From the IMG/VR virus record IMGVR_UViG_3300028534_000001, positions 132,338-196,337 of that record: a stretch of DNA of 64,000 nucleotides. The stretch is one strand, 5' to 3'. Position numbers and translations under genes: made by a program. Numbering within the stretch: the stretch's first letter is position 1; the number at the start of each line of letters is the position of its first letter. Origin of the DNA: a virus. Its lineage: Duplodnaviria; Heunggongvirae; Uroviricota; Caudoviricetes. Positions 3,488 to 62,290 of the stretch are shown here, piece after piece. Below the pieces are notes generated by a model. It ran no database searches, was not told where the DNA came from, and was given only the letters and a program-made list of their open reading frames with translations.

Positions 3488-3738
3488 AATTTTAATTCCT
3501 TTTTTAATGTATTTAATAAATAATTAAATTTATTTTCATTTAGACTTATAGAATCTTCTATATCCATACATTCTTTATCAAAAACATAATATGAACCATT
3601 ATCTTTATAAACTATAAAAGGTAATGTAATATTACCTTTTTCTACATCATAATTTACTGTAGTATAATCAACAAAATAATCTTCTATTTCTTTAATTTCT
3701 TCTTTATTTCTTACAATTTTAATAATTTCTAAATTCAT
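3481..3738 (-). CDS. hypothetical protein
   Basis: An 85 aa ORF with an AGGAG RBS follows promoter 3766..3794. Confidence 0.45.
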   Translation of the reverse strand: MNLEIIKIVRNKEEIKEIEDYFVDYTTVNYDVEKGNITLPFIVYKDNGSYYVFDKECMDIEDSISLNENKFNYLLNTLKKELKLC

Positions 3739-3765
3739 TTTTTCTCCTTGATTTTTTATATTATA

Positions 3766-3794
3766 ATTATACTACATTTTTATTAAAAAGTCAA
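3766..3794 (-). promoter_or_regulatory. sigma70-type early promoter
   Basis: The attata element is at 3766-3771 and agtcaa at 3789-3794, with a 17 nt spacer. Confidence 0.7.
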
Positions 3795-3804
3795 GAAAAA
3801 TTTA

Positions 3805-5439
3805 TTATTTTATTTCTATAATAGCATCTTTAACATATAATGGTAAAAATGAACTATTTTTAAATTTTTCAAAATTTTTATCAAAAATATAAAAAATAGC
3901 TTTATCATTTTTATGTCTAACAGCTCTACCATAACTTTGGATTATTTTATTAGCTGCATCTTGTTGATACCATTTAGGATATAATTGTGTTTTAATTTTA
4001 ACATAAGTATCTCCTAAACTAGCATAAGGAATTTTAGTTAAAATTTGCCATCTTGCAAAATCATCTTTAAAATCATGACCCTCATATAAAGTAGGTCCTA
4101 TTAAGATTTTTTTACCTTTGTATTTATTTATAGTTTCACTATCTTTTGCTACTACAATTTTATTACTATATTTAGAATTATTTTTAATTTCCCAAGCTAT
4201 ATTATAACTTGAAGTATGTATAATACCATTTTCATTTGAATGTTTTTCTATAATCTTATCAACTATTTTTGATATTTGTTTTATTGCATTATCAAAATTA
4301 TTATAATTAAAATCAATAACAGGTTTATATACTATTTTTCTATTTTTAATAGGGAAAGGACTATTACATTCATAACTACTATAATTTTTAATACCATTTT
4401 CTTTTGCATATACTTCAATATCACCTATTGTTGCTGATAAATGAATAAAAAAACTTCCTTTATTAAAAATATAATTAGCTATTTGATTAGCAAAAATAGG
4501 TTTTATACTAATAATTTTATATGGTTCATTAAAAGCATCTTCATTTATTTTTGTTAAATTTAATATAAATTCCCCTGAAGAATTATGAAAAATTTCTACT
4601 TTATTTATTAAATTTTCAACATAATTATATAATTTATTAAAAAATGAATTTTCATCTTTTAATTCTTCTAATTCTTCAAATCTATCTTTTAATACATTTA
4701 ATAAATTTTTACTCATATTTGCTAATTCTTTTGATGATAAAACAATTTTATTTATTTTACTAATAAAATCTTCTAATGAAATTATTATAGTTTCAAAATT
4801 TAAATATGCATTATCTAAACTTTTTTCTTTAAAAAAATTTATTTCTTTTTCATCTATTGTTAATGTCCCAAAATTAACTAATTCATCACTTAAAGTATGA
4901 CATTCATCAATAATTACTATATCAGAATTAGCTTTCTTATAACTAACATAAAAACTCATATTTGTTATTCTATCTTCTTCAGTATTTTCCCAAAAAGTTC
5001 TTTGTTTTAAATATGGACAATTTTCTCTATTACATTTTTTTGATTTTACTAATTTTAAACATTCATCTGTAGTATATGAAGTCCCAAATGAACAAATATA
5101 ATTTGTTTTTCCTTTAATGTCAACTAATTCAGGAAATTCATTAGTATATTGATCTTGTAAAGCTTTTGTTTTTGTTAAAATAACACTTCTTTTTAAATGA
5201 GAATTTATTTCTTTTAAAATTTTAGGTATAATTATTGCTATATAACTTTTACCTACACCTGTTGGTAATTGTCCTATAAAATGATCTTTATTATTTATAT
5301 AAGCTTCTATTATTTTATAAATAGTTTCTAATTGTTCTTTTCTTGGAGTTTTACCAAAAGGGAAATATTTTTTAATTAAATTATCAATTGATTCTTTATT
5401 TATTATATTATTCATATTATTACTCCTAAAATTTTTCAT
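3805..5439 (-). CDS. SF2 DinG/XPD-like ATP-dependent helicase with Fe-S domain
   Basis: Walker A is QLPTGVGKS and motif II is IIDECH. Four Cys (ICSFG, ECLKL, KKCNR, ENCPY) lie between motifs Ia and II as in the XPD Fe-S insertion. QSYGRAVRH fits motif VI. Confidence 0.6.
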   Translation of the reverse strand: MKNFRSNNMNNIINKESIDNLIKKYFPFGKTPRKEQLETIYKIIEAYINNKDHFIGQLPTGVGKSYIAIIIPKILKEINSHLKRSVILTKTKALQDQYTNEFPELVDIKGKTNYICSFGTSYTTDECLKLVKSKKCNRENCPYLKQRTFWENTEEDRITNMSFYVSYKKANSDIVIIDECHTLSDELVNFGTLTIDEKEINFFKEKSLDNAYLNFETIIISLEDFISKINKIVLSSKELANMSKNLLNVLKDRFEELEELKDENSFFNKLYNYVENLINKVEIFHNSSGEFILNLTKINEDAFNEPYKIISIKPIFANQIANYIFNKGSFFIHLSATIGDIEVYAKENGIKNYSSYECNSPFPIKNRKIVYKPVIDFNYNNFDNAIKQISKIVDKIIEKHSNENGIIHTSSYNIAWEIKNNSKYSNKIVVAKDSETINKYKGKKILIGPTLYEGHDFKDDFARWQILTKIPYASLGDTYVKIKTQLYPKWYQQDAANKIIQSYGRAVRHKNDKAIFYIFDKNFEKFKNSSFLPLYVKDAIIEIK

Positions 5440-9290: not shown

Positions 9291-9656
9291 TTATTCTCCT
9301 TCTTTAAATTTATCTTTCATAATTGCTGGTTTAATGATATTTTCCCATAACATTTTATGATTTTCTTTTAATTTTTCTATATTTTCTAATAATTTTTTAA
9401 AATCTTCATCAGATAATGAATTAAATCTATTATCAGATGGAATTTCTTTTAATAATTTATCTAAAATTTCTTTAATACAATCACTATTTTCGCATTTAGA
9501 AAATAAAAATAAAATTCCTTCATCTAAAATAGTTGTATAATCATCATCAACTTCTTTCCAAATAGTCCCTAAATCTGGTAAAGATAAACTTTCAATTTCA
9601 TTTTGATTTTTGTCTTCTTTTTCATTTTTAATTTCATTTAATAATTCTTTTAACAT
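9291..9656 (-). CDS. MLKEIL-family hypothetical protein
   Basis: N-terminus is MLKELLNEIKNE. 121 aa. Confidence 0.45.
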   Translation of the reverse strand: MLKELLNEIKNEKEDKNQNEIESLSLPDLGTIWKEVDDDYTTILDEGILFLFSKCENSDCIKEILDKLLKEIPSDNRFNSLSDEDFKKLLENIEKLKENHKMLWENIIKPAIMKDKFKEGE

Positions 9657-10063
9657 TAAATTTCCTTTAAAATTTGACTAGCAACTTTCATATCAAATGT
9701 TCCATCATTTAATTTTTTCAATTGACCCATAATTTTTCCAAAATCTTTAGGTAAAGTAAATTCATTAGAAGATAAAATATTTTGAATAATTATTTTCATT
9801 TCGTCTTTTGATTTAATTTTAGGTAAAAAATTTAAACTTAAAATAAAATCTAATTCATCTTTAACATCCATTCCATTTTGCATAGAATCTTCTAATTGTT
9901 TAACATATTTTTTTGTACCTTCAACAATCATTTCATCTTCTGATTTCTTTTTTTCTTTTGCTAGTTTTTGAATAGTATCAATTAACATCATTAAAGCATA
10001 AGCTTTATTAGGTGCTTCTTTTTTATATTTAAACATTAGTTTTTTCAATTCAATCATTTTCAT
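9656..10063 (-). CDS. hypothetical protein
   Basis: 135 aa ORF. Confidence 0.4.
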   Translation of the reverse strand: MKMIELKKLMFKYKKEAPNKAYALMMLIDTIQKLAKEKKKSEDEMIVEGTKKYVKQLEDSMQNGMDVKDELDFILSLNFLPKIKSKDEMKIIIQNILSSNEFTLPKDFGKIMGQLKKLNDGTFDMKVASQILKEI

Positions 10064-10355
10064 TTGTATCTCCTCTTATAATTGCTTTAATATCTCTTAA
10101 TTCTAAAAGAAAAAATTCACCTTCTTCAAATTTAATAGCAGTTGATATTGGCATTCTTCCATAATAAACAGAATCTCCTACAGAAATTTTATCATTTAAA
10201 TCTTTAAAAACTGCTACAACTTTACCTGTTTCAGGTTCTTTAGATGTTTGTAAAACTATTCCACTTGATGTTGTTTCTTCTTTATTTATTTCTATTAAAA
10301 TTCTCCCACCAATAGGTTCAAAATTTTTAATTGTCATTTTGTTTCTCCTTGACAT
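10050..10355 (-). CDS. GroES-like co-chaperonin (Hsp10)
   Basis: The FEPIGGRILIE, SGIVL, GKVVAV, VGDSV and DIKAII motifs align to the GroES IRPLHDRVIVK, GGIVL, GEVLAV, VGDIV and DILAIV motifs. Confidence 0.6.
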   Translation of the reverse strand: MSRRNKMTIKNFEPIGGRILIEINKEETTSSGIVLQTSKEPETGKVVAVFKDLNDKISVGDSVYYGRMPISTAIKFEEGEFFLLELRDIKAIIRGDTNEND

Positions 10356-10723
10356 TTTTCTTTATGTTTTTGATAACTAGAAAATCTTTTATATTCTTTT
10401 TTACAATTTTCACATATAAATGTTAAATCAATTTGTTTATTATATTTTTTTAAAAGATTTAATAATTTTTGTTTTTCTTGATTATTTAATAAAGAATTTA
10501 AAGGAATTAAATCAAATATTTTCGAATTTATAAATTCTTCAAATTCTTGATTTTCTTTATCAGAAAATCCATCAGTATAATATTTATCTATCATATATAT
10601 CAAATATTTTTTTAAATTATAAGCTGCTTGGGCTTCAAATAATACTCTTTTTTGTTCTTCTTTTAAATATTTTTTAAATTTTTTTAATTTTTTTCTTTTA
10701 ATATTCCTTTCAAATTTACCCAT
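10334..10723 (-). CDS. hypothetical protein with C-terminal C2HC-like zinc finger
   Basis: CENCKKEYKRFSSYQKHKEKC lies at the C-terminus. Confidence 0.4.
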   Translation of the reverse strand: MGKFERNIKRKKLKKFKKYLKEEQKRVLFEAQAAYNLKKYLIYMIDKYYTDGFSDKENQEFEEFINSKIFDLIPLNSLLNNQEKQKLLNLLKKYNKQIDLTFICENCKKEYKRFSSYQKHKEKCQGETK

Positions 10724-10732
10724 TTTTAATCC

Positions 10733-11299
10733 TTAAATTTTATATTGTTCTACAATTATACCACATTCTTTTAAAAAATCCAAACTTTTAGTATCTCTAT
10801 ATTTTTCTTTATAAACAACTCTTTTAATTCCTGCTTGAATAATCATTTTAGCGCATTCAAAACAAGGTGAAAGTGTAACATATAAAGTAGCTCCATTTGT
10901 ACTTATTCCATTTTTTGTACAAAATAAAATAGCATTTGCTTCAGCATGAACTACTTCTGGAATTGTTTTATTATTACATTCACATTTATCTTCTCTAATT
11001 TCTTTTTTACCTGTACCACCACATTCATAACATAAAATTTCATTTTTATCAGGTATACTAAATCCATAAACATCACTTAAAGGTATTTTTAAATTTTCTT
11101 TATCTAAAATACCTTTACCATTACATAATTTACAAGTTTCTAATTTTTTTATAGTATAACCTGAAGGTAATCCATTATAACCTATACTTATGATTCTTCC
11201 ATCTTTTACTAAAACAGCTGCTACTTTTTTTCTTGTACATTTACTTTGATTTTTCCAAACATCAGCTGTTTCCATCATAACTTTATCATATTTTTTCAT
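10733..11299 (-). CDS. cd: dCMP deaminase with inserted DnaJ-type zinc-finger module
   Basis: GYNGLPSG, HAEANAI and SPCFECA are the CDA zinc motifs. A roughly 45 aa insert between YNG and HAE carries CKLCNGKG and CYECGGTG. Confidence 0.8.
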   Translation of the reverse strand: MKKYDKVMMETADVWKNQSKCTRKKVAAVLVKDGRIISIGYNGLPSGYTIKKLETCKLCNGKGILDKENLKIPLSDVYGFSIPDKNEILCYECGGTGKKEIREDKCECNNKTIPEVVHAEANAILFCTKNGISTNGATLYVTLSPCFECAKMIIQAGIKRVVYKEKYRDTKSLDFLKECGIIVEQYKI

Positions 11300-11368
11300 A
11301 TATACTCCTAATTTTAAAAATATTTTATAATATAATTATAATATAAAAAATTAAAAAATATAACTTAT

Positions 11369-12196
11369 TTACCATTGAATTTTTTTAAATCTCATATCTT
11401 GAAAAGTATTTTGTTTAATATTAACATTTATAGTATTTTTAGAAGGTTTATTAGAATCTTCTCCTGTACTTATTCCTCCCCAATATTTACTACTTTCACC
11501 TACATTTAAATCAGTTTTTCCATAAATTTCTCTTATATCTAAAGGTGTATCATTTTTATCAATATCACAATAATGATAATCATAAAGAGTTATACTATGT
11601 TTTCCATTTTTAAAAGAAGCATAAATATAATTAGGATATATAGAATATTTCATTTTATTACCTTTTATTGAAGGTATATTATTATAAGATGTTTTATTAC
11701 CTATAAAATCAATAGCATTATAATTTATTTTATAAATTCTTCCTTCTTTTAAACTATTGGGAACATCAAAAGTAAAAGTATAAGGTCTTATACAAAAATG
11801 ATCTTTACTATATTCAGTTTTTATTTTTCCATCAGCTAATTTAAATGTTATTTTATATCTAGCATCTCTACTAATTTTATCAAATTTAGGAAATAAAAAA
11901 ATACCTATTCTTTTAACATTTCCAATTTTTTCATCTTTATTATTTACAATTGAAATATCATAAATTTTTATTATAGGACAAAATATTTGAATATTTTCAA
12001 AAGCACTTTTACCTTTTATTTTTGTTCCTATAATAGATAATATTTCATTTTTACATGAAACATCAACAACATTAACACATCTATGCATAATAGGATTAGT
12101 TTCTGGATGTTTGACATATGGGTGTTTTATGTTTGTATAATTTTCACTATATAAAAAACTAATCAAAATAACAATAAACATTAAAATTTTTTTCAT
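11369..12196 (-). CDS. secreted/membrane-anchored hypothetical protein
   Basis: The N-terminus has a hydrophobic signal/anchor MKKILMFIVILISFLYS. It overlaps the Sir2 gene by 4 nt (ATGA). Confidence 0.45.
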   Translation of the reverse strand: MKKILMFIVILISFLYSENYTNIKHPYVKHPETNPIMHRCVNVVDVSCKNEILSIIGTKIKGKSAFENIQIFCPIIKIYDISIVNNKDEKIGNVKRIGIFLFPKFDKISRDARYKITFKLADGKIKTEYSKDHFCIRPYTFTFDVPNSLKEGRIYKINYNAIDFIGNKTSYNNIPSIKGNKMKYSIYPNYIYASFKNGKHSITLYDYHYCDIDKNDTPLDIREIYGKTDLNVGESSKYWGGISTGEDSNKPSKNTINVNIKQNTFQDMRFKKIQW

Positions 12197-12915: not shown

Positions 12916-13221
12916 TTATATTACATCTTTTGATATACTAAAAATATTATGAAGTTCTAATATAAAAAATTTTATATTTTCACAAAAATTTTCAGGGAAA
13001 TTTTTATAAAAAGATATAGATTCTAATCTATGGATATTATTATCTTCGTTTAAAACTACATCAACAAGTTTTTTTTGATTTTCATTTAATTGTTCATAAT
13101 AATTTAAAATTTTGTCTACTAAATTATTTTTTTCTATGTATAAATACATATCTTTACAATCCATATCATAAACTTTTATAAGTTCGTTTAATAGTTCTTT
13201 CATAACGAACTCCTTTAACAT
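12916..13221 (-). CDS. MLKE-family hypothetical protein
   Basis: N-terminus is MLKEFVMKELLNEL. Confidence 0.4.
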   Translation of the reverse strand: MLKEFVMKELLNELIKVYDMDCKDMYLYIEKNNLVDKILNYYEQLNENQKKLVDVVLNEDNNIHRLESISFYKNFPENFCENIKFFILELHNIFSISKDVI

Positions 13222-13751
13222 TTTATATCAATATTATTTAAAATTTTTTTAATATCCTTTAAAGTTTCTGGTTTTTCGAATGTTTCTTCATTATTTTGAT
13301 TTTTAATTGTATTTTCTTTTTGTATTTGTTTAAAATCATTTTGAATATTTTTAGGTTTTATTTTTGTTAATACATCATATTCATATTTTAAATCATTATA
13401 TTTAGTTAATAATTTTTTATTTTTATCTTTCAAATTATCTAATTCTTCTAATAATAATAATTCAACTTTTTGTAAATTATTAAATTTTTTTTCTATTTTT
13501 CCTAATTTACTTTTTAGATTTTTTATTTCAACATATGATTTTTTTAATTTTTGTAAATAATGCTGTTCATAATCAAATTTATCATTTTCACAATTATTAA
13601 GAGTTACTCCAATAAATTCATAAAATCCTACAACATTTTCAAGGTATTCAACTTTGTGTAAAAGATTATCTCTTTCTCTTAAAATTTCTTTAAACATTTC
13701 AATAGAAATTTTATCTTCTTTATTGAATAAATTTTTTAGCCATTTAAACAT
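13215..13751 (-). CDS. coiled-coil hypothetical protein
   Basis: 178 aa with heptad-rich sequence. Confidence 0.4.
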   Translation of the reverse strand: MFKWLKNLFNKEDKISIEMFKEILRERDNLLHKVEYLENVVGFYEFIGVTLNNCENDKFDYEQHYLQKLKKSYVEIKNLKSKLGKIEKKFNNLQKVELLLLEELDNLKDKNKKLLTKYNDLKYEYDVLTKIKPKNIQNDFKQIQKENTIKNQNNEETFEKPETLKDIKKILNNIDIKC

Positions 13752-13753
13752 TT

Positions 13754-14032
13754 TTACTCCTTGTTAGCTTTTTCAAACATATCACAAGTTTTGACTTTGA
13801 TATCATTTAAATAAATAACATCCCATTCTTTTTTTAAAGATTCTAAATATTCATCTAATTCATCTATTACTATAAAATCAGTATCTAAATATTCAAAAGC
13901 TAGCGAAGGTAGCTCTTCGCAATTATATTTAAAATAATCTACATCAAAAGTATATTCACCTTTTGATTTTATTATTACTAAACCTATTTCATTTTTATTA
14001 AAATAATGATTATTTTTGCTTTTTATTTTCAT
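13754..14032 (-). CDS. hypothetical protein
   Basis: The start was moved to the ATG at 14032, because the track start at 14086 overlaps the -35 of promoter 14058..14086. Confidence 0.4.
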   Translation of the reverse strand: MKIKSKNNHYFNKNEIGLVIIKSKGEYTFDVDYFKYNCEELPSLAFEYLDTDFIVIDELDEYLESLKKEWDVIYLNDIKVKTCDMFEKANKE

Positions 14033-14057
14033 GATTTTACCTTTTTCTTTTTTTGTT

Positions 14058-14086
14058 ATTATACAATAAATCAAAAGAAAAGTCAA
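14058..14086 (-). promoter_or_regulatory. sigma70-type early promoter
   Basis: The attata element is at 14058-14063 and agtcaa at 14081-14086, with a 17 nt spacer. Confidence 0.7.
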
Positions 14087-14452
14087 CTAATCTTTTGATT
14101 TTAAACAGAAAAATCCTTCTAATGCTGAATCTGTTTCTAATGTAATAAAATATAATCCTTTTTTATTAGGTGTTTCACTTACATAAATTAAAATATTACC
14201 AGCTTCATAAATTTTAAATTTAGTATTATTAAAAGTTGTCCCACCTGATCTATAAAAAGTTGCGTGTGCTTTTCTATTAGTATTGATATTTTTAAGAGCA
14301 ATTTTTAATGTGTCTTCTTTTTCAATAGCATATAACATATCTTTATTATAACTAAATGCTTTACCATCAACTTGTTTTTTAACTGAAATACATTTATATT
14401 CTGACGCAAATAGACCTACAACAAACATTAACATTAACATAACTTTTTTCAT
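14087..14452 (-). CDS. secreted hypothetical protein
   Basis: Signal peptide MKKVMLMLMFVVGLFASEYKC is present. Confidence 0.45.
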   Translation of the reverse strand: MKKVMLMLMFVVGLFASEYKCISVKKQVDGKAFSYNKDMLYAIEKEDTLKIALKNINTNRKAHATFYRSGGTTFNNTKFKIYEAGNILIYVSETPNKKGLYFITLETDSALEGFFCLKSKD

Positions 14453-18586: not shown

Positions 18587-18975
18587 GAATTTTCTTTTAA
18601 TTTTAATAATTTTTCTTTAATTTCTTTCCATATTTTATTTTTTTGTTGGTTAAATTCTAAGACATCATCACTAGGAGCACTAAAATAAAATCCTATTCCT
18701 TCGTCAAATTTATAAATTACATTTGGATTTAATAATTTTTTTAATTCATCAATTTCTACATCATTAGAAAAAGAAATATAAGGCACCCATCTTTCATCAA
18801 CTTTACCATTTTTACATAAAAGATGACCTTCACAACTCCAAGTAGTTGTATATCCTAATTCATTAAACAAAGGTATAATTTCTTGAATCATTTCATCTAT
18901 TAAAACTTTTTTTCCATTTATAATGACTGGTACTTGCATTTTTACTTCCTTATTTAATTTTTTGATAATATTCAA
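18583..18975 (-). CDS. hypothetical protein
   Basis: 130 aa ORF. Confidence 0.4.
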   Translation of the reverse strand: MNIIKKLNKEVKMQVPVIINGKKVLIDEMIQEIIPLFNELGYTTTWSCEGHLLCKNGKVDERWVPYISFSNDVEIDELKKLLNPNVIYKFDEGIGFYFSAPSDDVLEFNQQKNKIWKEIKEKLLKLKENS

Positions 18976-19402
18976 TTATTTTTTTAGAAAATTCTTCTAA
19001 AATATTTTCTAAATTTATATCAATTTTATCATTTACATTAGAATTTAATTTTGTTAAAATGTTTAATTTTTCTTTAAAATCATCTTTTAAATCTTCAATA
19101 TTTTCATCTATTGAAACACCATTTAATAATTTTTTTTCTAAATCTAAAATTTTATTAAATTCTAATTTTAATTCTTCTATATTAAAAGGGATTTTTACAA
19201 CTCTTTTTTTCACTTCTTCATTTAATTTGAATTTTATAAATTCTTTTAAATTAGTTTCAATATATTTTTCTGTCGTATATGTATGATTAAAAGGAATTTC
19301 AACATCAAACGGAATTTTACTTGATGACTCTAACAAAACTTTTATTTCCAAAATATCTTCTAATGTCTTTAAATCTTTTTTTACTGATGTAAATAATTTC
19401 AC
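18950..19402 (-). CDS. hypothetical protein
   Basis: 150 aa ORF. Confidence 0.4.
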   Translation of the reverse strand: MKLFTSVKKDLKTLEDILEIKVLLESSSKIPFDVEIPFNHTYTTEKYIETNLKEFIKFKLNEEVKKRVVKIPFNIEELKLEFNKILDLEKKLLNGVSIDENIEDLKDDFKEKLNILTKLNSNVNDKIDINLENILEEFSKKIIEYYQKIK

Positions 19403-19411
19403 TTTTTCTCC

Positions 19412-26744: not shown

Positions 26745-26957
26745 TTTAACTCCTATAATATATATATAATTTTAATAAGAAATTTTTTCAATTTCATAAA
26801 TATCTAATCCAAATGTTTCACTAAATGCTACTTTTATTTCATCTTCAATATCTTTTTTAGAAATAAAAGTCATTGTCATTGATGGCATTACTCCATTATA
26901 AGCATCAAAATAACATTCATATCCTTCAACATAAGATATTAAAACTCCTTAAACCAT

Positions 26958-27047
26958 CATAAGTTCTTTAAATTTTTTTCTAATTGATATAAATTATAAT
27001 TATCTTCCATTCCTTCGATATTTTCACTCCATACTCTATATTTCATG
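26958..27047 (-). CDS. small hypothetical protein (29 aa)
   Basis: MKYRVWSENIEGMEDNYNLYQLEKNLKNL lies directly downstream of promoter 27080..27108. It is below the ORF-track size cutoff. Confidence 0.25.
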
Positions 27048-27079
27048 ATTTTTCCTTTTTCTTTATTTTTTACATTATA

Positions 27080-27108
27080 ATTATATTAAAAATAAAAGGA
27101 AAAGTCAA
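27080..27108 (-). promoter_or_regulatory. sigma70-type early promoter
   Basis: The attata element is at 27080-27085 and agtcaa at 27103-27108, with a 17 nt spacer. Confidence 0.7.
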
Positions 27109-27535: not shown

Positions 27536-27757
27536 TTATTCTAAATTTGTAATTACGACTCCAAAATTACCTTTATCTGTGGTAACAACTTCACCTTCTC
27601 CAATTTTTACATTGTTAGCAAAAATCTCTACTTTTTCATTAACCTCTTTATCAAATTTAATTAAATCTTCAACTTTCAATGATTCAATTTCACTAAGTTT
27701 CATTTTAGTATCACATAATTTAACAAAAACATCAACTTTTACATCTTTTAAATTCAT
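27536..27757 (-). CDS. fliN: FliN/SpoA-domain flagellar motor switch-like protein
   Basis: The 73 aa protein DVKVDVFVKL..T.MKLSEIESLKVEDLIKFDK...VEIFANNVKIGEGEVVTTD..FGVVITNL fits the FliN C-terminal SpoA pattern. It overlaps the fliM-like gene by 4 nt. Confidence 0.55.
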   Translation of the reverse strand: MNLKDVKVDVFVKLCDTKMKLSEIESLKVEDLIKFDKEVNEKVEIFANNVKIGEGEVVTTDKGNFGVVITNLE

Positions 27758-28572
27758 TGTATCTCCTTTATATTATCATTTATTTTAATAGCAAAATCAT
27801 TTAATAATAAAGTATCTCCAACTTTAAAATTATCAATTTCTTTTACATTATATTTTTTAGTTTTACCTATTTCGATATCTAAATTAAAATCAAAATTTTT
27901 TTCTTTTTTATTGTTTTCTTTGAAAAAATCTTTAAATTCTTCATAAGGTAAACAAATATTTACCATACCTGAACTACTACCTACTATTATTTCAAATACA
28001 GCCATTATTGACGTTGAATGTTTTTTAGGTCTATAATAAGGTTGACTAAAATGAAAATCTATTATTTCTATATCATCACCAATTCTTTCAAAATCCTCTG
28101 AATATATAAAGGTATTTACTAATTTTCTCATTATTTCATTAGAAACTATTTTTTCAACATTATTGAATTGAATTTCACAAGATTCCATAAATGATTGTAT
28201 TAAAGATGGATTTATTTCAACAAAAAATGTTCTACCATCAAGTTTTAACTCATAAAAGAATGTTGGATGTGGTAAACACATAAGAAATTCATCAAATGTC
28301 AAAACATCTACACTATGCAATTGCATTTCAACTTCTTTTTTAACTAGACTTCTCAATTCAGGTAAAACATTATAAACAAATCTATCTAAAAGCCTTCTTA
28401 TATTTCTTAAATTTTGTTTAGAAACAATATTAGGCCTTTTAAAATCATAATATGTATATTTGTTTTGTTGATTTGAAACTTGTTCATCTTTAAATCTATT
28501 AGGTTGTATATCATCTTCTTCAACCATTTCTAAAAAAGCTTCAATTTCTTCTTGTGACATAATATCAGCCAT
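27754..28572 (-). CDS. fliM: FliM-like flagellar motor switch protein (lacks C-terminal FliN-like domain)
   Basis: MADIMSQEEIEAFL matches the FliM/FliY N-terminal LSQ-E/D-EIDALL. YDFKRPN..S...LRNIRRLLDRF matches FliM YDPNTQRRV..ERLQALEIINERF. GMVNICLPY matches GEFNICLPF and FKVGDTLLL matches LNPGDVLPI. Confidence 0.6.
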   Translation of the reverse strand: MADIMSQEEIEAFLEMVEEDDIQPNRFKDEQVSNQQNKYTYYDFKRPNIVSKQNLRNIRRLLDRFVYNVLPELRSLVKKEVEMQLHSVDVLTFDEFLMCLPHPTFFYELKLDGRTFFVEINPSLIQSFMESCEIQFNNVEKIVSNEIMRKLVNTFIYSEDFERIGDDIEIIDFHFSQPYYRPKKHSTSIMAVFEIIVGSSSGMVNICLPYEEFKDFFKENNKKEKNFDFNLDIEIGKTKKYNVKEIDNFKVGDTLLLNDFAIKINDNIKEIQ

Positions 28573-35100: not shown

Positions 35101-35141
35101 GTTTTCTCCTTGTTTTGTTCTTTATTTCTTTTTACATTATA

Positions 35142-35170
35142 ATTATACTAAATTTTTAAAGAAAAGTCAA
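35142..35170 (-). promoter_or_regulatory. sigma70-type early promoter
   Basis: The attata element is at 35142-35147 and agtcaa at 35165-35170, with a 17 nt spacer. Confidence 0.7.
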
Positions 35171-35185
35171 CACTTTATATAACAT

Positions 35186-35362
35186 TTATACTAGATTTTG
35201 AAATTTCGAATGTATATTTATCGTTTATAGTAACTTTATATGAAATTGTAAACACAGATGCTCTTGACCTTATAGAAATGTATTCATTAGCTTCTTGTTC
35301 TTCAATTTTAATTGCTTCGATACCAAAAGTTGGTTTTTATTGTATTTTTTCATGATTGCTTC
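35186..35362 (-). pseudogene. frameshifted small ORF between two promoters
   Basis: An ATG at about 35360 is read as MKKYNKNQLLVSKQLKLKNKKLMNTFL*. From just after NQ, another frame encodes about 50 more residues (FGIEAIKIEEQEANEYISIRS...SSINVI) to a stop near 35190. Confidence 0.2.
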
Positions 35363-35385
35363 CTTTTTATTCTTTCTATATTATA

Positions 35386-35414
35386 ATTATACACAAAAAG
35401 AAAAGAAAAGTTAA
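35386..35414 (-). promoter_or_regulatory. sigma70-type early promoter, TTAACT -35 variant
   Basis: The attata element is at 35386-35391 and agttaa at 35409-35414, with a 17 nt spacer. Confidence 0.55.
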
Positions 35415-35426
35415 GAGATTTAGACT

Positions 35427-36052: not shown

Positions 36053-37420
36053 TTATTTTCTTTTTCTTTTAAATTCGTGAACATCATTAAACATAATTTG
36101 AACAATTTTATCACTTTGTTCAATTTGAATTATATGTTTTTCATCTTTAGATAATTCTAAAAATGTTTTCCCATCACACCAAATATGAAAAGGTTTTCTT
36201 GATTTTATTTTAATTGTTAAATTTTGAGGTTCTAAAACATAATGGATTTTTCTATTAGTTTTATCTCCTGTTATAACCCAATTATTTGAAGTTAAAGGTA
36301 AAATAACACCACCATTATTTTTATTTATACCAGTACTACCTTGAGCAGTTGATACAATTATACCACTACCTTTGAAATCTTCAATTTGTTCATCTTTATC
36401 ATCAACACTAAAATCAATCCAAGACGACATATCACCACCTATACATATTTCATTAAAAGCTAAATGCCAATTATTTTCATATTTTACTTTTAATAAATGT
36501 AGTGAAATAATTTCAGGATTTGATATATTTTCTTCTTTATTCATAAGAAAATTTAAAGTACCTTTTCCAACACCATAAAAAGGTTTGTTTTTAAAAGAAA
36601 ATTCTCTTATAGCAAGAAGCATTGTTCCATCACCACCATATACTTTAATAAAATTTGTATATTCTACTATTTTATAATATTTATCAAATGTTTTTAATTC
36701 CCAAATAATTTCACCCCAAAATTTCCATTCATTTAATAATTTGAATGTTTTTTCAAAAAGGTATTTTTTACCTAATTCTTTATTTTTTCTAATTTCTCTT
36801 GCGTGAATAACATTTCCATTATTAGTAAATTCTTCAATATTTTTAATGTGATATCCTTCTAATCCAAAAATAGTAGGATAATTACCGTGATATTTTTTAT
36901 TTTTATATTCAAAATCAATCTTATCGACATCTTTTAAATGTGAATATAAAATAATATTTTTTTTAGATGATATGTCTAAAATTTGTTTTTCTATATTTTC
37001 AAACCATTTATCCCAAGATTCATAGTCATTAGCTCCTATTATAATAGCATTTGGGTATATTTTTTCAATAATTTCTTTTCTTTGTTCAAAAGATAAAGGA
37101 TTTTTATCATCAAGTATTTTATTTATACTACCTATTACAATTATAGGTATTAAACCATCTTCAATAATTTTATTAACAATACTAGCATGTCCTTTGTGGA
37201 AAGGTTGAAATCTTCCTAGAAATAATCCATATTTTTGGTTATAATTTTCATCACATATAAAACTTTCAATAAAAAATTGACCTCCCATAGGAGTATCAGA
37301 ACCTACTTTAAATCCACATTTAGAACATTTATAAATAGTTACTCCATTTCCTTTATATTCTTCTTCAATTATTTCTCTATAATTTTTTGAATATATTCCA
37401 CATTTAGGACATTTATACAT
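36053..37420 (-). CDS. bifunctional NMN adenylyltransferase (NadM-type) / NAD kinase fusion with N-terminal zinc ribbon
   Basis: The N-terminus is CPKCG...CSKCG. GLFLGRFQPFHKGHASIV...IIVIGS matches the archaeal NadM motif GRFQPFH.GH...IG.GS. The C-terminal domain carries the NAD kinase motifs GGDGTMLLA, GVGKGTLNFL, NEICIGG and GIIVSTAQGSTGINKNNGGVILP. Confidence 0.7.
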   Translation of the reverse strand: MYKCPKCGIYSKNYREIIEEEYKGNGVTIYKCSKCGFKVGSDTPMGGQFFIESFICDENYNQKYGLFLGRFQPFHKGHASIVNKIIEDGLIPIIVIGSINKILDDKNPLSFEQRKEIIEKIYPNAIIIGANDYESWDKWFENIEKQILDISSKKNIILYSHLKDVDKIDFEYKNKKYHGNYPTIFGLEGYHIKNIEEFTNNGNVIHAREIRKNKELGKKYLFEKTFKLLNEWKFWGEIIWELKTFDKYYKIVEYTNFIKVYGGDGTMLLAIREFSFKNKPFYGVGKGTLNFLMNKEENISNPEIISLHLLKVKYENNWHLAFNEICIGGDMSSWIDFSVDDKDEQIEDFKGSGIIVSTAQGSTGINKNNGGVILPLTSNNWVITGDKTNRKIHYVLEPQNLTIKIKSRKPFHIWCDGKTFLELSKDEKHIIQIEQSDKIVQIMFNDVHEFKRKRK

Positions 37421-43515: not shown

Positions 43516-44901
43516 TTATTTATCTATATTTTCTCTAATTTTATCAAGTGTTATTTCGTTTTTTATTTCTCCATTCTCAAAAACAACTTTTAGCATATCA
43601 ATATCGTTAGGTTGTTTTTCACTTTCTTTAATACAGATAATTTTATCATTTCTTTTAACAGTAATTACTTTACCTTTTTTAGATTGTTTTTTACTATCTG
43701 TTATAGGATTTTTAAACACTTCAACTCCAACTTTTTTACTATCTATATTTCTTTCAATATAAGAACATTTCATAGCAAAACTAAATGTATCTCTATCAAT
43801 TCCAGTTTGCCCTAATTGTGTTCCACTACCAAAAACAAAATTTTCAGCTGCATATCCTCTTTCTGTAAATATTTTAAGGATGTTATCAATTGTTTCAGGA
43901 TTAACACCATCACCCCATAGCACGCTCGTCCAACTACTTGCTTTCTTTCCATTTATTTCAATATCAAAAACATTGTTTTTTTCCATAATTTCAAACATTT
44001 TAGAAATGACTTCAATTGGGTTTCCACTATCTGGACGAATAACAAATGTTTGATTATTTTTAATAATTGATTTTCTAATATTACTTTCAGGTTTTGTAAC
44101 TTCATTTGTAAAATTATAAATATCATAACTATCTGCCACAAATGATAGGATAGCACCTTCTTTATCATTTTCTCTAACCATTCTTTCAATAAATGCTATT
44201 TCTTTTTCAGTTGAACCTTCAGCGTTAGCAGTAGTTGAACTATGTTCCGACGCAAATACGCTAAAAGCGCTTATTTCAGAACTATAAAAATCTCTTGCGA
44301 ATTTAAGAGAATTAAAATTATCTGTCCCATAAAATACACAATTATGAGCGAAACCACTAATTGCTGCTGATTCTACACTTGTCATACTTCTATCCCCAAA
44401 GTTATGATAAGCAAATCTTGCCCATTCTTCACTTCCATATTTTTTAAGCATTTCAAAAACCTGTTTGCTTTTAGTTGTAATAACTGTAGGATACCATATT
44501 TTCATAAGTATTGTCTCCACCCATCCTACTATCCACGGAACATTTTCATCTGTGCTTTCTACTATTACAAGTGGAACACCAGGTTTAACTTTTACACCTT
44601 CTTCAATTGCTTTAATTTTAATAGGAAGTCTTCCATCAAGTTCTTTAGCAATATACATCCAACCATCATAATTAAAATCTATTCCGTGAAGTTTAGCAAA
44701 TTTTGCTGCTTCTTCTACCATTTCTGTAGTAATTCTTTGACTAAGATACCTTTTTAGGTAATATTGAAGACCACTCATAATAATTGTATCAGGACCTTTT
44801 CTTGCCTCGATATAATCATACATATAACACATATCTTTTGGGTATTGTTTATAATGACCATATTTATAAGAATCACTCATCATTACTATATTTTCAACCA
44901 T
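43516..44901 (-). CDS. nadV: nicotinamide phosphoribosyltransferase (NadV/NAMPT)
   Basis: SDSYKYGHYKQYP matches NAMPT TDSYKVTHYKQYP. ADSYDIYN, VIRPDSGNP, FGSG, KCSY and VFKNP..D..K.SKKG all match NAMPT signature blocks. The length is 461 aa. Confidence 0.85.
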   Translation of the reverse strand: MVENIVMMSDSYKYGHYKQYPKDMCYMYDYIEARKGPDTIIMSGLQYYLKRYLSQRITTEMVEEAAKFAKLHGIDFNYDGWMYIAKELDGRLPIKIKAIEEGVKVKPGVPLVIVESTDENVPWIVGWVETILMKIWYPTVITTKSKQVFEMLKKYGSEEWARFAYHNFGDRSMTSVESAAISGFAHNCVFYGTDNFNSLKFARDFYSSEISAFSVFASEHSSTTANAEGSTEKEIAFIERMVRENDKEGAILSFVADSYDIYNFTNEVTKPESNIRKSIIKNNQTFVIRPDSGNPIEVISKMFEIMEKNNVFDIEINGKKASSWTSVLWGDGVNPETIDNILKIFTERGYAAENFVFGSGTQLGQTGIDRDTFSFAMKCSYIERNIDSKKVGVEVFKNPITDSKKQSKKGKVITVKRNDKIICIKESEKQPNDIDMLKVVFENGEIKNEITLDKIRENIDK

Positions 44902-47491: not shown

Positions 47492-47521
47492 GATTTTTTC
47501 CTTGACTTTTTTTTATATTAT

Positions 47522-47550
47522 AATTATAACATATTTTTATTAAAAAGTCA
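47522..47550 (-). promoter_or_regulatory. sigma70-type early promoter
   Basis: The attata element is at 47522-47527 and agtcaa at 47545-47550, with a 17 nt spacer. Confidence 0.7.
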
Positions 47551-47567
47551 AGGATTTTTTTAAAAAA

Positions 47568-47813
47568 TTATTTTATTTTTTCAAATTTTATTTCTTTTAC
47601 GAAATCTTCTTTTTCATCTTCTGTAAACATAGCAATATAAAATTTATTTTTAATATTTAAAATATATTTAACAAAACTTTTTGAAGTTGTTAATTGAGCA
47701 TATTCAATTTCATTTAATCTAATTTTCATATCTTCAGCAATTTTTTCAAGTCTTGATTTTAATTGCTCTTTATCTAATTCAAAGTTTCTTGATTCTAAAA
47801 TTTCTTTTAACAT
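47568..47813 (-). CDS. MLKEIL-family small protein
   Basis: N-terminus is MLKEILESRNF. It is the first of four consecutive MLKEIL-family genes. Confidence 0.4.
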   Translation of the reverse strand: MLKEILESRNFELDKEQLKSRLEKIAEDMKIRLNEIEYAQLTTSKSFVKYILNIKNKFYIAMFTEDEKEDFVKEIKFEKIK

Positions 47814-47823
47814 AATTATCCTT

Positions 47824-48036
47824 TTATTTAAATTTATTTACAAATAAAAAATTTTTGATTTCTATATATTTTGAATTTATAATTTTTAATTCATTTTTTA
47901 AATCTATATCATTTTTCATTAAAAAATGTTCTAAAGAATCTACATCTTGAACAGATTGAATTTCTTCATTTTTAATATCAATTATTAAAATATCAATTTT
48001 TTCAGGTTTATTTTTATTTAATATTTCTTTTAACAT
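47824..48036 (-). CDS. MLKEIL-family small protein
   Basis: N-terminus is MLKEILNKNKPE. Confidence 0.4.
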   Translation of the reverse strand: MLKEILNKNKPEKIDILIIDIKNEEIQSVQDVDSLEHFLMKNDIDLKNELKIINSKYIEIKNFLFVNKFK

Positions 48037-48045
48037 AATTACCCT

Positions 48046-48357
48046 TTATTCAAATGTATCTTTTTCGTTATCAAGATACCAACAATTATCTTTAGGATGT
48101 TTAACAAGATAAACAGGGTCTCCACTTGCAATTGAAGTATAACCTCTACAATTTGGTGATATTGTTTTTCTTCCTATACATTTTTGTATAATTAAAGAAA
48201 TACCACCTTTATCATCAATATCTGTAACTTGTCCCATCCTACCAATAAGAACACTTTTAACACATTCACCTTTATCTAAAAGTTCTTTGACTTTTTGAAT
48301 AACTTTTTTTCTTTCTTCAGGTGATTGTTTAATTCCTTCTAAAACAATTTTTAACAT
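48046..48357 (-). CDS. MLKEIL-family small protein
   Basis: N-terminus is MLKIVLEGIKQ. Confidence 0.4.
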   Translation of the reverse strand: MLKIVLEGIKQSPEERKKVIQKVKELLDKGECVKSVLIGRMGQVTDIDDKGGISLIIQKCIGRKTISPNCRGYTSIASGDPVYLVKHPKDNCWYLDNEKDTFE

Positions 48358-48359
48358 TT

Positions 48360-48668
48360 TTAGACCTTTAAATTATAATAATTTTTTATAAAATTTTTTA
48401 ATTCTTTTATATAAGCAAATTTAAAAATTTCTTTATCATCTTTATAAACTTTATTATTTTTTAATATAAGATAATTTAATTTTGTATAATCAACTCCACC
48501 TATTCTATTATCACCTTTAAAATCTCCTTTTAAAAGTTTTTCAAGATAAGTTTCAAGATTACCAAAATTAACTATTTGTGAAGTTTTACCATCACTTATA
48601 ATAAACTCATCATCTTCAATATAAGCAATTACATTATTTGATAAACTTTCTAAAATTTTTTTTAACAT
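48360..48668 (-). CDS. MLKEIL-family small protein
   Basis: N-terminus is MLKKILESLSN. Confidence 0.4.
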   Translation of the reverse strand: MLKKILESLSNNVIAYIEDDEFIISDGKTSQIVNFGNLETYLEKLLKGDFKGDNRIGGVDYTKLNYLILKNNKVYKDDKEIFKFAYIKELKNFIKNYYNLKV

Positions 48669-48761
48669 TATATCTCACCCTCTATAATTTTAATATTTAA
48701 ATGTGGAAAATTTATGTTAAATTCATCAATATCACTTATATATTTTATTTCAAATCCTTTT

Positions 48762-49304
48762 TTATTTATTTAATTGATATGCCCATTTTGTAAAAATAAA
48801 AATTGATTTCCAATCACTATTTTCAATAAGTTCATCTACATTTAACCAAATAATTTTCTCATCTTCATCTGCACCTACAAAGTCAACATTAGTTACATCA
48901 ACAACATAACCTTTTAACATTTGATTAGATTGAGTTGAAACCATTGTTTTACCTATATATGTAATATTTCTATTATCAACTTTATAACCAGCTTCTTCTT
49001 TAACTTCTTCAATGACAATTTTTTCAGGTTCAATATTTTTATCTAAACTTCCACCAAAAGCAGTAGCTAATCTTTTAATTCCTCTTTCATATAAAGGTGG
49101 TTTAATTTCTTGAATAAGACCAATTTTATCTTTGTTATTATCAATTAAAATAAAGGCAACACTATCAATACCTGCTCTTTCTGAATATAAGTAATAACCA
49201 TCTGCTTTTTTAATTTTCATAAAAGGTTCATTATTAAGGGGATTTTTGCTATCACTTTGCCAAATTATTTCAGGTTTTTCACTTTCCATTTTTTCTATAA
49301 TCAT
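48762..49304 (-). CDS. Nudix-like hydrolase (ADP-ribose pyrophosphatase-like)
   Basis: FGGSLDKNIEPEKIVIEEVKEEAGY is a degenerate Nudix box (GG...E.E....EE..EE.G). Confidence 0.45.
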   Translation of the reverse strand: MIIEKMESEKPEIIWQSDSKNPLNNEPFMKIKKADGYYLYSERAGIDSVAFILIDNNKDKIGLIQEIKPPLYERGIKRLATAFGGSLDKNIEPEKIVIEEVKEEAGYKVDNRNITYIGKTMVSTQSNQMLKGYVVDVTNVDFVGADEDEKIIWLNVDELIENSDWKSIFIFTKWAYQLNK

Positions 49305-49319
49305 AATTTTTCTCCTTAA

Positions 49320-49421
49320 AATTTAAATCCATTTATAGCTAAATATCCTATTGCTGCAATACTTTCAATAGCTATCCATAAAAATATAATAGTTGCAATT
49401 GTTTCAAAAAATATCATTTTA
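49320..49421 (-). CDS. small membrane peptide (about 33 aa), absent from ORF track
   Basis: MIFFETIATIIFLWIAIESIAAIGYLAINGFKF lies between two genes. Confidence 0.2.
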
Positions 49422-49427
49422 TTCTCC

Positions 49428-49610
49428 TTATTTATTATAAAAATCTTGACTATTTCCATCTAACATACAAGCATAATTACAATAATTGTCGTCATATTTT
49501 TTATCAACTTCTTCTAAAATTTTTTCTTTTAGAATTTTTTTCATTTCTTTTTTTATTTTTTTCTTTTGTTCTTTTGTTAAAAGTGATTCAAATTTTGATT
49601 TTATCTTCAT
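49428..49610 (-). CDS. hypothetical protein
   Basis: A 60 aa ORF follows promoter 49638..49666. Confidence 0.35.
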   Translation of the reverse strand: MKIKSKFESLLTKEQKKKIKKEMKKILKEKILEEVDKKYDDNYCNYACMLDGNSQDFYNK

Positions 49611-49637
49611 GTTTTCTCCTTGACTTTTTATATTATA

Positions 49638-49666
49638 ATTATAATATATTTTTATTAAAAAGTCAA
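49638..49666 (-). promoter_or_regulatory. sigma70-type early promoter
   Basis: The attata element is at 49638-49643 and agtcaa at 49661-49666, with a 17 nt spacer. Confidence 0.7.
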
Positions 49667-49683
49667 GGATTTTTAAATATTTT

Positions 49684-49926
49684 TTAAAATTTAACTACTA
49701 AATAATCTCCAGCATTAAAAATTTTACCTGTTTTAAGATTTTTAATTTTTAAAATATCTTCTTCGTCAAATCCCATATCTTCATTAAAAAAACTTTCAAA
49801 ATTTTCTACAATAATAATATTTTTATTATCATAAGCTTCAATAAATACCCAACTATCTTTTGTAACATTTATTGTTTGAAAATTTTTTCCTTCTTCAATT
49901 TTTGTTTCAATAATTTCTTTTAACAT
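49684..49926 (-). CDS. MLKEIL-family small protein
   Basis: N-terminus is MLKEIIETKIEEG. Confidence 0.4.
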   Translation of the reverse strand: MLKEIIETKIEEGKNFQTINVTKDSWVFIEAYDNKNIIIVENFESFFNEDMGFDEEDILKIKNLKTGKIFNAGDYLVVKF

Positions 49927-49941
49927 TTTTATATCCTTTTT

Positions 49942-50187
49942 TTAATTATTACATAAATATAATTCAAATTCTTTTTTTAATTTTGTTACAACTAATTTTT
50001 TAAATTTAGATGGAATAGAAAAATAATAAAAACCATTATCATTTTCTGTCCAATTTTCTACATCTTTATCATTTAAACCATTTTTAACTAATTCATCATA
50101 AACTTTATTAGCATTATCTAAATTTTTGAATACTAATGTAATATTATTAGATTCTTCTATTTTAGATTTGATTATTTCTTTTAACAT
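49942..50187 (-). CDS. MLKEIL-family small protein
   Basis: N-terminus is MLKEIIKSKIEES. Confidence 0.4.
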   Translation of the reverse strand: MLKEIIKSKIEESNNITLVFKNLDNANKVYDELVKNGLNDKDVENWTENDNGFYYFSIPSKFKKLVVTKLKKEFELYLCNN

Positions 50188-61913: not shown

Positions 61914-62128
61914 AATAAATATTCCTTTCTAAATTTTGTATAATCCATAATAAATATTCCTACAATAAAGTATAATTTTAGAAAGAAATATTTATTATGG
62001 ATATGATGAATAATTTATATTATTTAATTTTTTTATATTAAAATTATACAATATTTTATAAAAATAACAAACTTTTTTGTAAAAATTTTTATTAAATTTT
62101 TTCATATTTTAAAAATCCTTTATAAGAA

Positions 62129-62290
62129 ATATTCTTTTCTTTTTTCTATATATAATTATACAATTTTAAAATTGAATTAGAAATAATATATTCTTTTCTT
62201 CTTTCTATATATAATTATACAATTTTAAAATTGAATTAGAAATAATATATTCTTTTCTTCTTTCTATATATAATTATACAATTTTAAATT
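62129..62290 (-). repeat. tandem direct repeat, about 2.7 x 58 bp, each unit with a -10-like TATAAT but no TTGACT
   Basis: The unit atattcttttcttctttctatatataattatacaattttaaaattgaattagaaataat occurs at about 62129, 62187 and 62246. The third copy is truncated and overlaps the stop of 62274..63080. Confidence 0.6.

Follow-up and report, generated by a model that had tools for sequence, protein, structure and literature searches.

The window and its leader genes

The window examined here is a stretch of 64,000 nt from the Caudoviricetes record IMGVR_UViG_3300028534_000001 (positions 132,338 to 196,337), and the element in question is a short N-terminal peptide, termed here the leader, with which a series of otherwise unrelated phage proteins begin (M-L-K-E-I-L or a close variant). 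The window is 19.9% G+C and carries ~109 genes, nearly all on the minus strand, with products that include a DinG-like helicase, NAMPT, an NMNAT-like protein, RNA ligase 1 and a kinase-like protein. Two tandem arrays of leader genes, array 1 with four members (A to D) and array 2 with two, lie on either side of a conserved Nudix-like gene, and further leader genes are dispersed through the window (Table 1).

The 11 MLKEIL-type open reading frames (ORFs) listed in the original prediction are all present on the minus strand and start as described. Strict MLKEI[LI] starts are found in seven of the 109 window genes (ATGs at 50187, 49926, 48036, 47813, 36020, 29068 and 3487), and the looser pattern ML[KR][EKI][ILFV][LIV] fits 11; LKEI[LI] occurs at no internal position in 19,122 window residues. 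The seven strict starts compare with 0.0023 expected from the position-specific N-terminal composition of the other genes (Poisson P = 7e-23), and at the DNA level the leader 18-mer has 15 matches with up to three mismatches vs. 7.1 +/- 2.8 in shuffles. The prediction had named, as an outcome that would refute it, starts no more frequent than codon usage dictates; they are far more frequent, and chance or composition is ruled out as the source of the shared start. MFKEIL at 13697, where an internal Met of ORF 13215-13751 would be the start, is an uncertain additional candidate. No occurrence of the text 'MLKEIL' was found in the literature searched.

Past the start the proteins diverge, as had been proposed: once the first 8 residues are removed, no pair is matched by blastp at E < 0.1. 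Each leader gene has a ribosome-binding site (RBS; AAGGA/AGGG/GGTG) 6-9 nt upstream and, also in agreement with the prediction, lacks a promoter of its own, as none of the 19 TTGAC-N15-19-TAWAAT matches in the window directly precedes a leader gene. Pfam and PHROG scans of the window leader proteins returned nothing above threshold. The gene at 36020 retrieved only itself in a search of 5.8 billion proteins; a 70-aa vent protein (L174) is 37% identical to the first ~67 residues of its product.

Table 1. Leader genes and associated features of the window, by descending coordinate
Feature	Position	Strand	Start or signal	Remarks
Leader gene, 81 aa	49942..50187	minus	MLKEIIKSKIEE...	First of the tandem pair (array 2)
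Leader gene, 80 aa	49684..49926	minus	MLKEIIETKIEE...	Second of the pair, last before the promoter-hairpin 49683-49611
Promoter-hairpin	49611..49683	minus	TTGACT-N17-TATAAT	-17.5 kcal/mol, z = -6.6; closes array 2
Nudix-like gene, 180 aa	48762..49304	minus		Conserved; between both arrays; anchor for fetching relatives
Intergenic region	48669..48761	minus		Ahead of array 1; homologous to L102 through +22 of gene A
Leader gene A, 102 aa	48360..48668	minus	MLKKILES...	First of the tandem run (array 1)
Leader gene B, 103 aa	48046..48357	minus	MLKIVLEG	Array 1; decayed leader
Leader gene C, 70 aa	47824..48036	minus	MLKEILNKNKPE...	Array 1
Leader gene D, 81 aa	47568..47813	minus	MLKEILESRNFE...	Last of array 1, then the promoter-hairpin 47567-47492
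Promoter-hairpin	47492..47567	minus		Near-identical to that of array 2; -17.3 kcal/mol, z = -7.5; closes array 1
Leader gene, 197 aa	35427..36020	minus	MLKEILKEIQNE...	Leu2 codon CTT
Leader gene, 157 aa	28595..29068	minus	MLKEIIEELKVK...	
Leader-like gene, 101 aa	12916..13221	minus	MLKEFVMKELLNEL...	Weaker match; codons AAG GAG TTC GTT
Leader gene, 121 aa	9291..9656	minus	MLKELLNEIKNE...	
Leader gene, 147 aa	3044..3487	minus	MLKEILKELKEN...	Last before the promoter 3043-2978

One leader on many unrelated proteins

Relatives of the window were collected via NAMPT, protein B, the Nudix gene that separates the arrays and a degenerate 21-mer, and all of them carry leader genes. Together with the window they provide 46 non-redundant leader proteins of 70-501 aa, which fall into 32 groups that lack mutual blastp similarity. 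In L102, leader genes account for 7 of 36 genes, and in L107 for 4 of 22; L117 has six in a stretch of 14 kb, and L123 has three in tandem. Most of the proteins belong to no family recognised by Pfam or PHROG; the three exceptions are (i) a PD-(D/E)XK exonuclease (L117_798), in which the Pfam PDDEXK_1 domain begins at residue 17, (ii) a cytidylyltransferase/NMNAT-like enzyme (L163_975), in which CTP_transf_like begins at residue 23, and (iii) a member of phrog_1250 (L117_9668). The leader thus precedes the folded or catalytic part of the protein, and its carriers are mostly small acidic proteins without an assigned function, plus some enzymes. Their median isoelectric point (pI) is 5.3, compared to 6.75 for other small proteins (p = 0.005). 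Some are genuine paralogues or homologues (54% identity between L111_1562 and L111_3349; 29% between L026_2174 and L107_9496). The set as a whole does not consist of full-length paralogues, so that this refuting outcome named in the original prediction is not what is seen; a single paralogous family is excluded, because unrelated known families, a nuclease and a nucleotidyltransferase among them, follow the same leader.

Constraint on the peptide

The leader is kept by selection on the peptide rather than on DNA or RNA. The predicted six-residue start is real, but the conserved unit is longer, since a Glu stands at residue 7 or 8 in 30 of the 32 groups, compared to 15 of 98 other genes. The consensus is therefore M-L-K-E-(I/L/V)-(L/I/V)-(x)-E, which amounts to one or two [ILV]-x-E units at the start of an acidic amphipathic segment. 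Among the leader codons, second positions are invariant and first and third positions vary, giving the variation a three-base periodicity. Leu2 is encoded by CTN in 9 of the 46 leaders (genome background ~15%), and the Ile5 codons (ATT 13, ATA 4, ATC 1) match the 61/36/3% background. Replacements are conservative (K/R, E/Q/D, I/L/V/F), and between one and three nucleotides, often two or three, have to change for the I-to-L, L-to-I/V and K-to-R swaps. The invariance at positions 2-6 is partly imposed by the search pattern; the synonymous variation and the Glu at residue 7 or 8 are not.

The leader is also better conserved than the protein body that follows it. The eight homologous pairs with body identities below 70% (29-66%) agree at 36 of 40 leader positions (90%), and a homologue of protein B from another vent metagenome, with a body only 43% identical, retains it (MLKELIEN). 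Leaders of protein B orthologues read MLKEILEG, MLKEILEL and MIKETLKL, and one other protein family begins MLKEILEN in L123 and MSYKDTILSDEL in L087 and L102. An exhaustive profile search with protein B gave a single true distant homologue, which bears the leader (MLKELIEN), and no remote homologue without it. In an AlphaFold2 model of B, residues 1-10 are unstructured (predicted local distance difference test, pLDDT, 38) and a helix starts from residue 13; the overall pLDDT of 58.7 makes the model too poor for a fold search.

Upstream of the ATG, no family-specific conservation beyond the RBS was found relative to 125 other promoterless genes (maximum 0.3 bit per position), and this per-position comparison rules out a longer DNA element. 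One candidate upstream motif, TAAATAAATATAAAAAGGA, is marginally enriched (9 vs. 3.9 +/- 2.0). It is very probable that many unrelated proteins of these phages share an N-terminal leader that is conserved as a peptide.

Exchange of gene cassettes at the leader

From one relative to another, leader genes come and go, give way to others or change places, and the junctions lie in the RBS and leader codons. The gene order is Nudix-A-B-C-D-promoter in the window and Nudix-X-B-D-acetyltransferase-Y-C in L102; in L105 the acetyltransferase directly follows Nudix with no leader cassettes between them, and L107 and L087 have different leader genes between the same flanking genes. The gain and loss of cassettes that the original prediction proposed to look for are seen as differences in presence, absence and order among the window, L102, L105 and L107. 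A blastn comparison of the window with L102 places the joints. The Nudix block takes in the intergenic region and stops at +22 of the gene behind it, past which A (102 aa, window) and X (204 aa, L102) are unrelated; the B block reaches from -19 of the B ATG to +18 of the next gene, which is C in the window and D in L102; and the C block coincides with the gene, from exactly the ATG to the stop codon, with C placed elsewhere in the L102 array. All joints fall within ~30 nt made up of the RBS spacer and leader codons, which is the sole similarity between neighbouring cassettes. Their resolution is also ~30 nt, and joints inside the 9-12-nt RBS spacer remain compatible with the data.

This pattern is as expected from recombination between leader copies, and cassette exchange probably uses the leader region as its joint. 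The recombination handle suggested in the original prediction is supported as a consequence rather than as the cause, given that the L102 blocks end in the RBS and leader, that a body is swapped and that the order is changed. A pure DNA handle does not account for conservation at the amino-acid level with synonymous sites that follow codon usage. Whatever the function of the leader, the arrays provide a clean natural case of gene-sized cassette exchange with joints in coding sequence, not in intergenic linkers.

Two further observations concern the arrays. A GNAT acetyltransferase-like gene (a weak Pfam match) lies in or beside the leader array in L102 (11812-12480), L105 (10540-11211) and L112 (1464-2135) and is absent from the window's array; any connection between this gene and Met-Leu N-termini is purely speculative. 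Just ahead of the 9656 leader gene, the upstream gene ends ...QILKEI* and includes a near-copy of the leader DNA (ATTTTAAAGGAAATTTAA, window 9656-9673) that doubles as the RBS of the 9656 gene. The near-copy may be a recombination scar or a coincidence.

Relatives and a T4-type head

The window sequence is also present on metagenomic contigs of 207 kb and 222 kb, and no close DNA-level relatives of the window were found among sequenced phages. Its helicase is only ~32% identical to those of Ackermannviridae and myoviruses like them. No relatives emerged when IMG/VR was searched with the helicase, and an exact 40-mer was absent from it too; the exact leader 18-mer is found in IMG/VR on 84 contigs among the matches listed, with one match each and nearly all unrelated. 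The relatives that were collected derive from one JGI study (Ga02568xx) and ENA assemblies, with one contig labelled hydrothermal vent metagenome. Two more distant Nudix-anchored loci were rejected: L110 is an unrelated phage without the leader motif, and L108 is a bacterial-looking contig of 18% GC. L108 (JGI Ga0256836_1000036, 90.8 kb) comes from the same study and has a 47%-identical homologue of the phage Nudix gene, with genes on both strands that include CsgG, an M48 peptidase and YqeY. It is possibly the host or the source of the Nudix gene.

No structural genes were found on extending the window ends, and the head genes are read on a relative contig of 105,639 bp (L136, the same as L242) rather than on the genome that holds the window; the terminase is as far as L026 extends. 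The 105,639-bp contig, which carries leader genes too, encodes a Pfam Gp23 capsid protein (E = 2e-20, 73.8 bits; cut-off 24.4) and, adjoining the terminase, a 689-aa protein with a Peptidase_S77 domain of the gp21 family (E = 1e-9, 38.3 bits; cut-off 27). Because of the Gp23 and Peptidase_S77 genes, the lineage is assigned to a T4-type jumbo phage group. The leader-bearing lineage is one of ~200-kb T4-like phages from hydrothermal-vent metagenomes. The gp23-like capsid protein of L242 (16198-17601) has conserved L-F-E|A and F-K-E|A sites at residues 25-28 and 59-62, in its N-terminal region, which are candidate maturation sites and suggest a hydrophobic-x-Glu specificity for the lineage protease. 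Near these head genes, an HNH/homing-endonuclease-like gene (540 aa, phrog_3339, L242 7628-9247) lies just upstream of the terminase, and the terminase itself (10112-12010) has a weak match to intein splicing.

A proposed address and processing tag

We infer that the leader is a tag read by one common partner, most likely the assembling prohead core. In the reading preferred here, to which a probability of about 40% is given, the leader would be an N-terminal address and processing tag similar to a capsid-targeting sequence (CTS). The CTS borne by T4's internal proteins IPI, IPII and IPIII and by Alt was reportedly described by Mullaney and Black in 1996. It is a propeptide of 10-19 residues that binds the prohead core and is removed by gp21; residues 8 and 10 determine its processing, with cleavage after a Glu (PMC3012670; PMC9026906; PMC5694885). 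The T-even internal proteins form a diverse, defence-countering set in which only the CTS is conserved (PMC3012670; PMC9026906; PMC5694885). By analogy, the vent-phage leader would load cargo proteins into the T4-type head via the prohead core, and the gp21-type prohead protease would clip it after Glu, as it does the CTS carried by T4's internal proteins and by Alt. An [ILV]-x-E motif, of low information content, ends at leader residue 7 or 8 in 30 of the 32 groups (I-A-E in T4 IPIII). The ~20-30 nt of near-identical RBS and leader codons would be the sole homology available for recombination ahead of each cassette, and this would explain cassette shuffling as a by-product or secondary benefit of the tag.

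A broader proposal, in which the leader would be a plug-and-play tag for the loading and ejection of several dozen cargos through a T4-type head, with its own codons as the recombination joint between phages, is tentative and somewhat doubtful. Its cargo would comprise candidate anti-defence proteins, an exonuclease and an NAD-salvage nucleotidyltransferase.

Several points weigh against the CTS-like tag. The carriers are numerous (10-30% of the genes in some regions) and acidic, unlike the T-even proteins with CTS-like sequences, which are described as basic (PMC9026906). The exonuclease and NMNAT-like cargos are of a housekeeping type, and the usefulness of packaging them is not obvious. The [ILV]-x-E motif carries little information where K, E, I and L abound in the proteome. 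The leader has 7-8 residues, shorter than the T4 CTS, and MKTYQEFIAE and MLKEILxE share no similarity beyond the Met and a Glu-terminated hydrophobic pattern. Early expression is suggested by several leader genes that lie in operons behind consensus sigma70-type promoters or, in L116 and L123, directly behind one. Not one of 24 genes around the L242 head module (22 kb) carries the leader; the T4 ip genes likewise lie outside the head module. Moreover, the leader decays in orthologues: the window copy of B reads MLKIVLEG with a body 95% identical to that of its L102 orthologue (MLKEILEG), and the P0091 orthologue of B reads MIKETLKL. The leader is thus dispensable for at least some carriers.

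One alternative is a tag with a different reader. Such a tag would act as a degron or timing signal, through regulated proteolysis of the accessory proteins, or as a helix that docks to another shared host or phage partner or compartment. Conservation at the peptide level and a position outside the domain fit such a signal equally, and the acidity of the carriers, the presence of cytoplasmic-type enzymes among them, their location behind early-type promoters and the loss of the leader without loss of the protein in some orthologues are in its favour. By contrast, no bacterial N-terminal degron class or docking motif was matched, though none was specifically tested, and no candidate receptor is at hand; the Ile/Leu-preceded Glu and the gp21-type protease of the lineage suit processing better. 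A different reader is, on balance, rather unlikely.

A pure recombination linker, i.e., 18-21 nt kept for cassette exchange with a functionless peptide, is distinctly improbable. It draws on the joints described above, with blocks that end at +18 to +22 or begin exactly at the ATG, on the swap of body A for X between leader copies and the change of B-C-D to B-D-...-C, and on the tandem layout that puts a leader copy on both sides of each body. However, the leader DNA is not homogenised, as its synonymous and first-position variation matches codon usage; conservative swaps that cost several nucleotide changes are tolerated in a codon-periodic constraint; the ~30-nt resolution of the junctions cannot separate the leader from the RBS spacer; and second-order selection for evolvability is weak.

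An expression module has a similarly low probability. On this reading, codons 1 to 6-8 would give the genes a standard start of translation, through unstructured mRNA or a favourable early elongation or nascent peptide, or would form an operator through which a RegA-like translational repressor co-regulates them. The carriers all have a good RBS at standard spacing, mostly without their own promoter, and the operators of T4 RegA overlap start codons. Against this, the folding energy of the start region (-25 to +30) is the same in leader genes as in others (p = 0.69), all start regions being unstructured at 20% GC, and no family-specific upstream signal accompanies the leader; the translation-initiation enhancer of the original prediction finds no support on the same two counts. 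mRNA structure or a GAAA-loop hairpin in the leader 18-mer was also rejected, at only -0.5 kcal/mol. The variation tracks codon positions, unlike that of an RNA-binding site, and the commonest second residue in other genes is Lys, not Leu. Finally, a fast-evolving single paralogous family that keeps only its N-terminal helix is very unlikely and largely refuted: true paralogues or distant homologues occur and tandem arrays are typical of duplication, but the 32 groups lack blastp similarity across 70-501 aa, and the PD-(D/E)XK nuclease, the Rossmann-type nucleotidyltransferase and the phrog_1250 protein begin after the leader.

Should the leader prove to be an address tag, just one other clear case would be on record of a short linear signal that directs arbitrary proteins to a destination defined by a phage, and the leader would be the largest such system by far. 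From sequence alone it would flag a whole set of accessory proteins of uncultivated jumbo phages as probably injected or co-regulated, and the flagged proteins would be good anti-defence candidates. It would also offer a portable 8-residue packaging tag, a use that the T4 CTS has served.

Promoter-hairpins

A near-consensus sigma70 promoter (TTGACTTTT-N17-TATAAT, then AAGGAG) is found in 19 of the 40 window intergenic regions of at least 45 nt (e.g., 60248-60074, 49683-49611, 47567-47492, 42638-42570, 15779-15716, 3804-3739 and 2550-2488); no consensus promoter was found in the intergenic region ahead of array 1. These promoter regions cross-match as a dispersed 60-130-nt repeat that is common to the relatives too. 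In ~8 of these 19 regions, complementarity between the -35 box and the RBS region gives a hairpin that spans the promoter; the two strongest promoter-hairpins sit directly after arrays 1 and 2. In read-through transcripts, the hairpin would hide the RBS.

Other genes of the window and its relatives

The window encodes two flagellar switch homologues, which are unusual in a phage: a FliM-like protein of 272 aa (27754-28572, minus strand) whose start, MADIMSQEEIEAFL, resembles the CheY-binding peptide LSQxEIDxLL, followed by a FliN-like protein of 73 aa (27536-27757, minus strand). The FliM and FliMN_C Pfam matches come from the contig annotation. NAMPT (43516-44901), a CTP_transf_like/NAD-kinase-C fusion (36053-37420) and the Nudix hydrolase (48762-49304) look like an NAD+ salvage or reconstitution set, and L163 has an extra NMNAT-like gene, which bears the MLKEIL leader. 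tRNA and Rfam scans of the window were empty. Four long intergenic regions of 326-472 nt (35101-35426, 26745-27104, 61914-62273 and 18940-19411) contain no called gene, tRNA or Rfam match. Among the contigs listed with the relatives or the flank of the window's genome, L114 encodes an actin-like ALP/ParM-type protein (3117-4067), L117 a type IV pilin-like protein with a prepilin N-terminus (13928-14341) and L102 a GGDEF-domain protein (4827-5279).

Comparison with known systems

The original prediction compared the leader to the PeSLs of T4-type phages, which are intergenic elements composed of a promoter, a stem-loop and an RBS (PMC2839356) and are described as mobile regulatory cassettes (Arbiol et al. 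2010, PMC2839356; Comeau et al. 2014, PMC4122927). The two are alike as short repeats at gene boundaries in hyperplastic regions, where gene-sized modules are exchanged between related phages. The leader, however, is coding and has neither promoter nor stem-loop, whereas the PeSL is intergenic and has a sigma70-like promoter. The comparison fails for the leader itself, in that the first 6-8 codons are what is shared, no promoter stands ahead, nothing upstream is conserved and the 18-mer has a folding energy of only -0.5 kcal/mol. The PeSL-like elements of this genome are instead the promoter-hairpins, which are separate from the leader.

Polymorphic effector and toxin systems combine a conserved N-terminal trafficking region with a variable C-terminal cargo. 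They share with the vent phages a constant N-terminal address, a variable payload and cassette-like exchange. Theirs are whole N-terminal domains of cellular secretion systems, while the leader is an 8-residue phage peptide with no linked secretion machinery.

Another phage example is provided by gp53 and gp54 of the giant phage SPN3US, diverged ejection-protein paralogues with identical N-termini (MANFVKSKLARESVE) and Glu-ending protease motifs that are read as CTS-like (PMC5694885). As in the vent phages, the N-terminal stretch is conserved and the remainder has diverged. The SPN3US case differs in that it concerns two paralogues with long propeptides in a phiKZ-like phage, compared to dozens of non-homologous proteins with a leader of 7-8 residues.

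The T4 CTS differs in scale and cargo, with at least 32 unrelated cargo groups in the vent phages vs. a handful in T4, and with a vent-phage cargo that is mostly acidic and includes enzymes. The T4 proteins are packaged and cleaved, and the leader proteins, read on metagenomic contigs, are predicted to be. The T4 record places ipIII and ipII in tandem on the early strand, with nudE, e and denV alongside; the two genes encode unrelated proteins that both begin MKTYQEFIAE, and ipI starts MKTFKEF; the DNA identity of ipII and ipIII reaches 17 nt upstream of the ATG, whereas only the RBS is shared here. The likenesses are threefold: (i) a short N-terminal leader on otherwise unrelated accessory proteins of fast turnover that vary between relatives, (ii) tandem genes on the early strand in non-structural surroundings, with ipIII-ipII by nudE in T4 and arrays that flank a Nudix gene here, and (iii) a hydrophobic-x-Glu motif in the leader, a candidate protease site in the vent phages, together with genes for a gp23-type capsid and a gp21-type protease.

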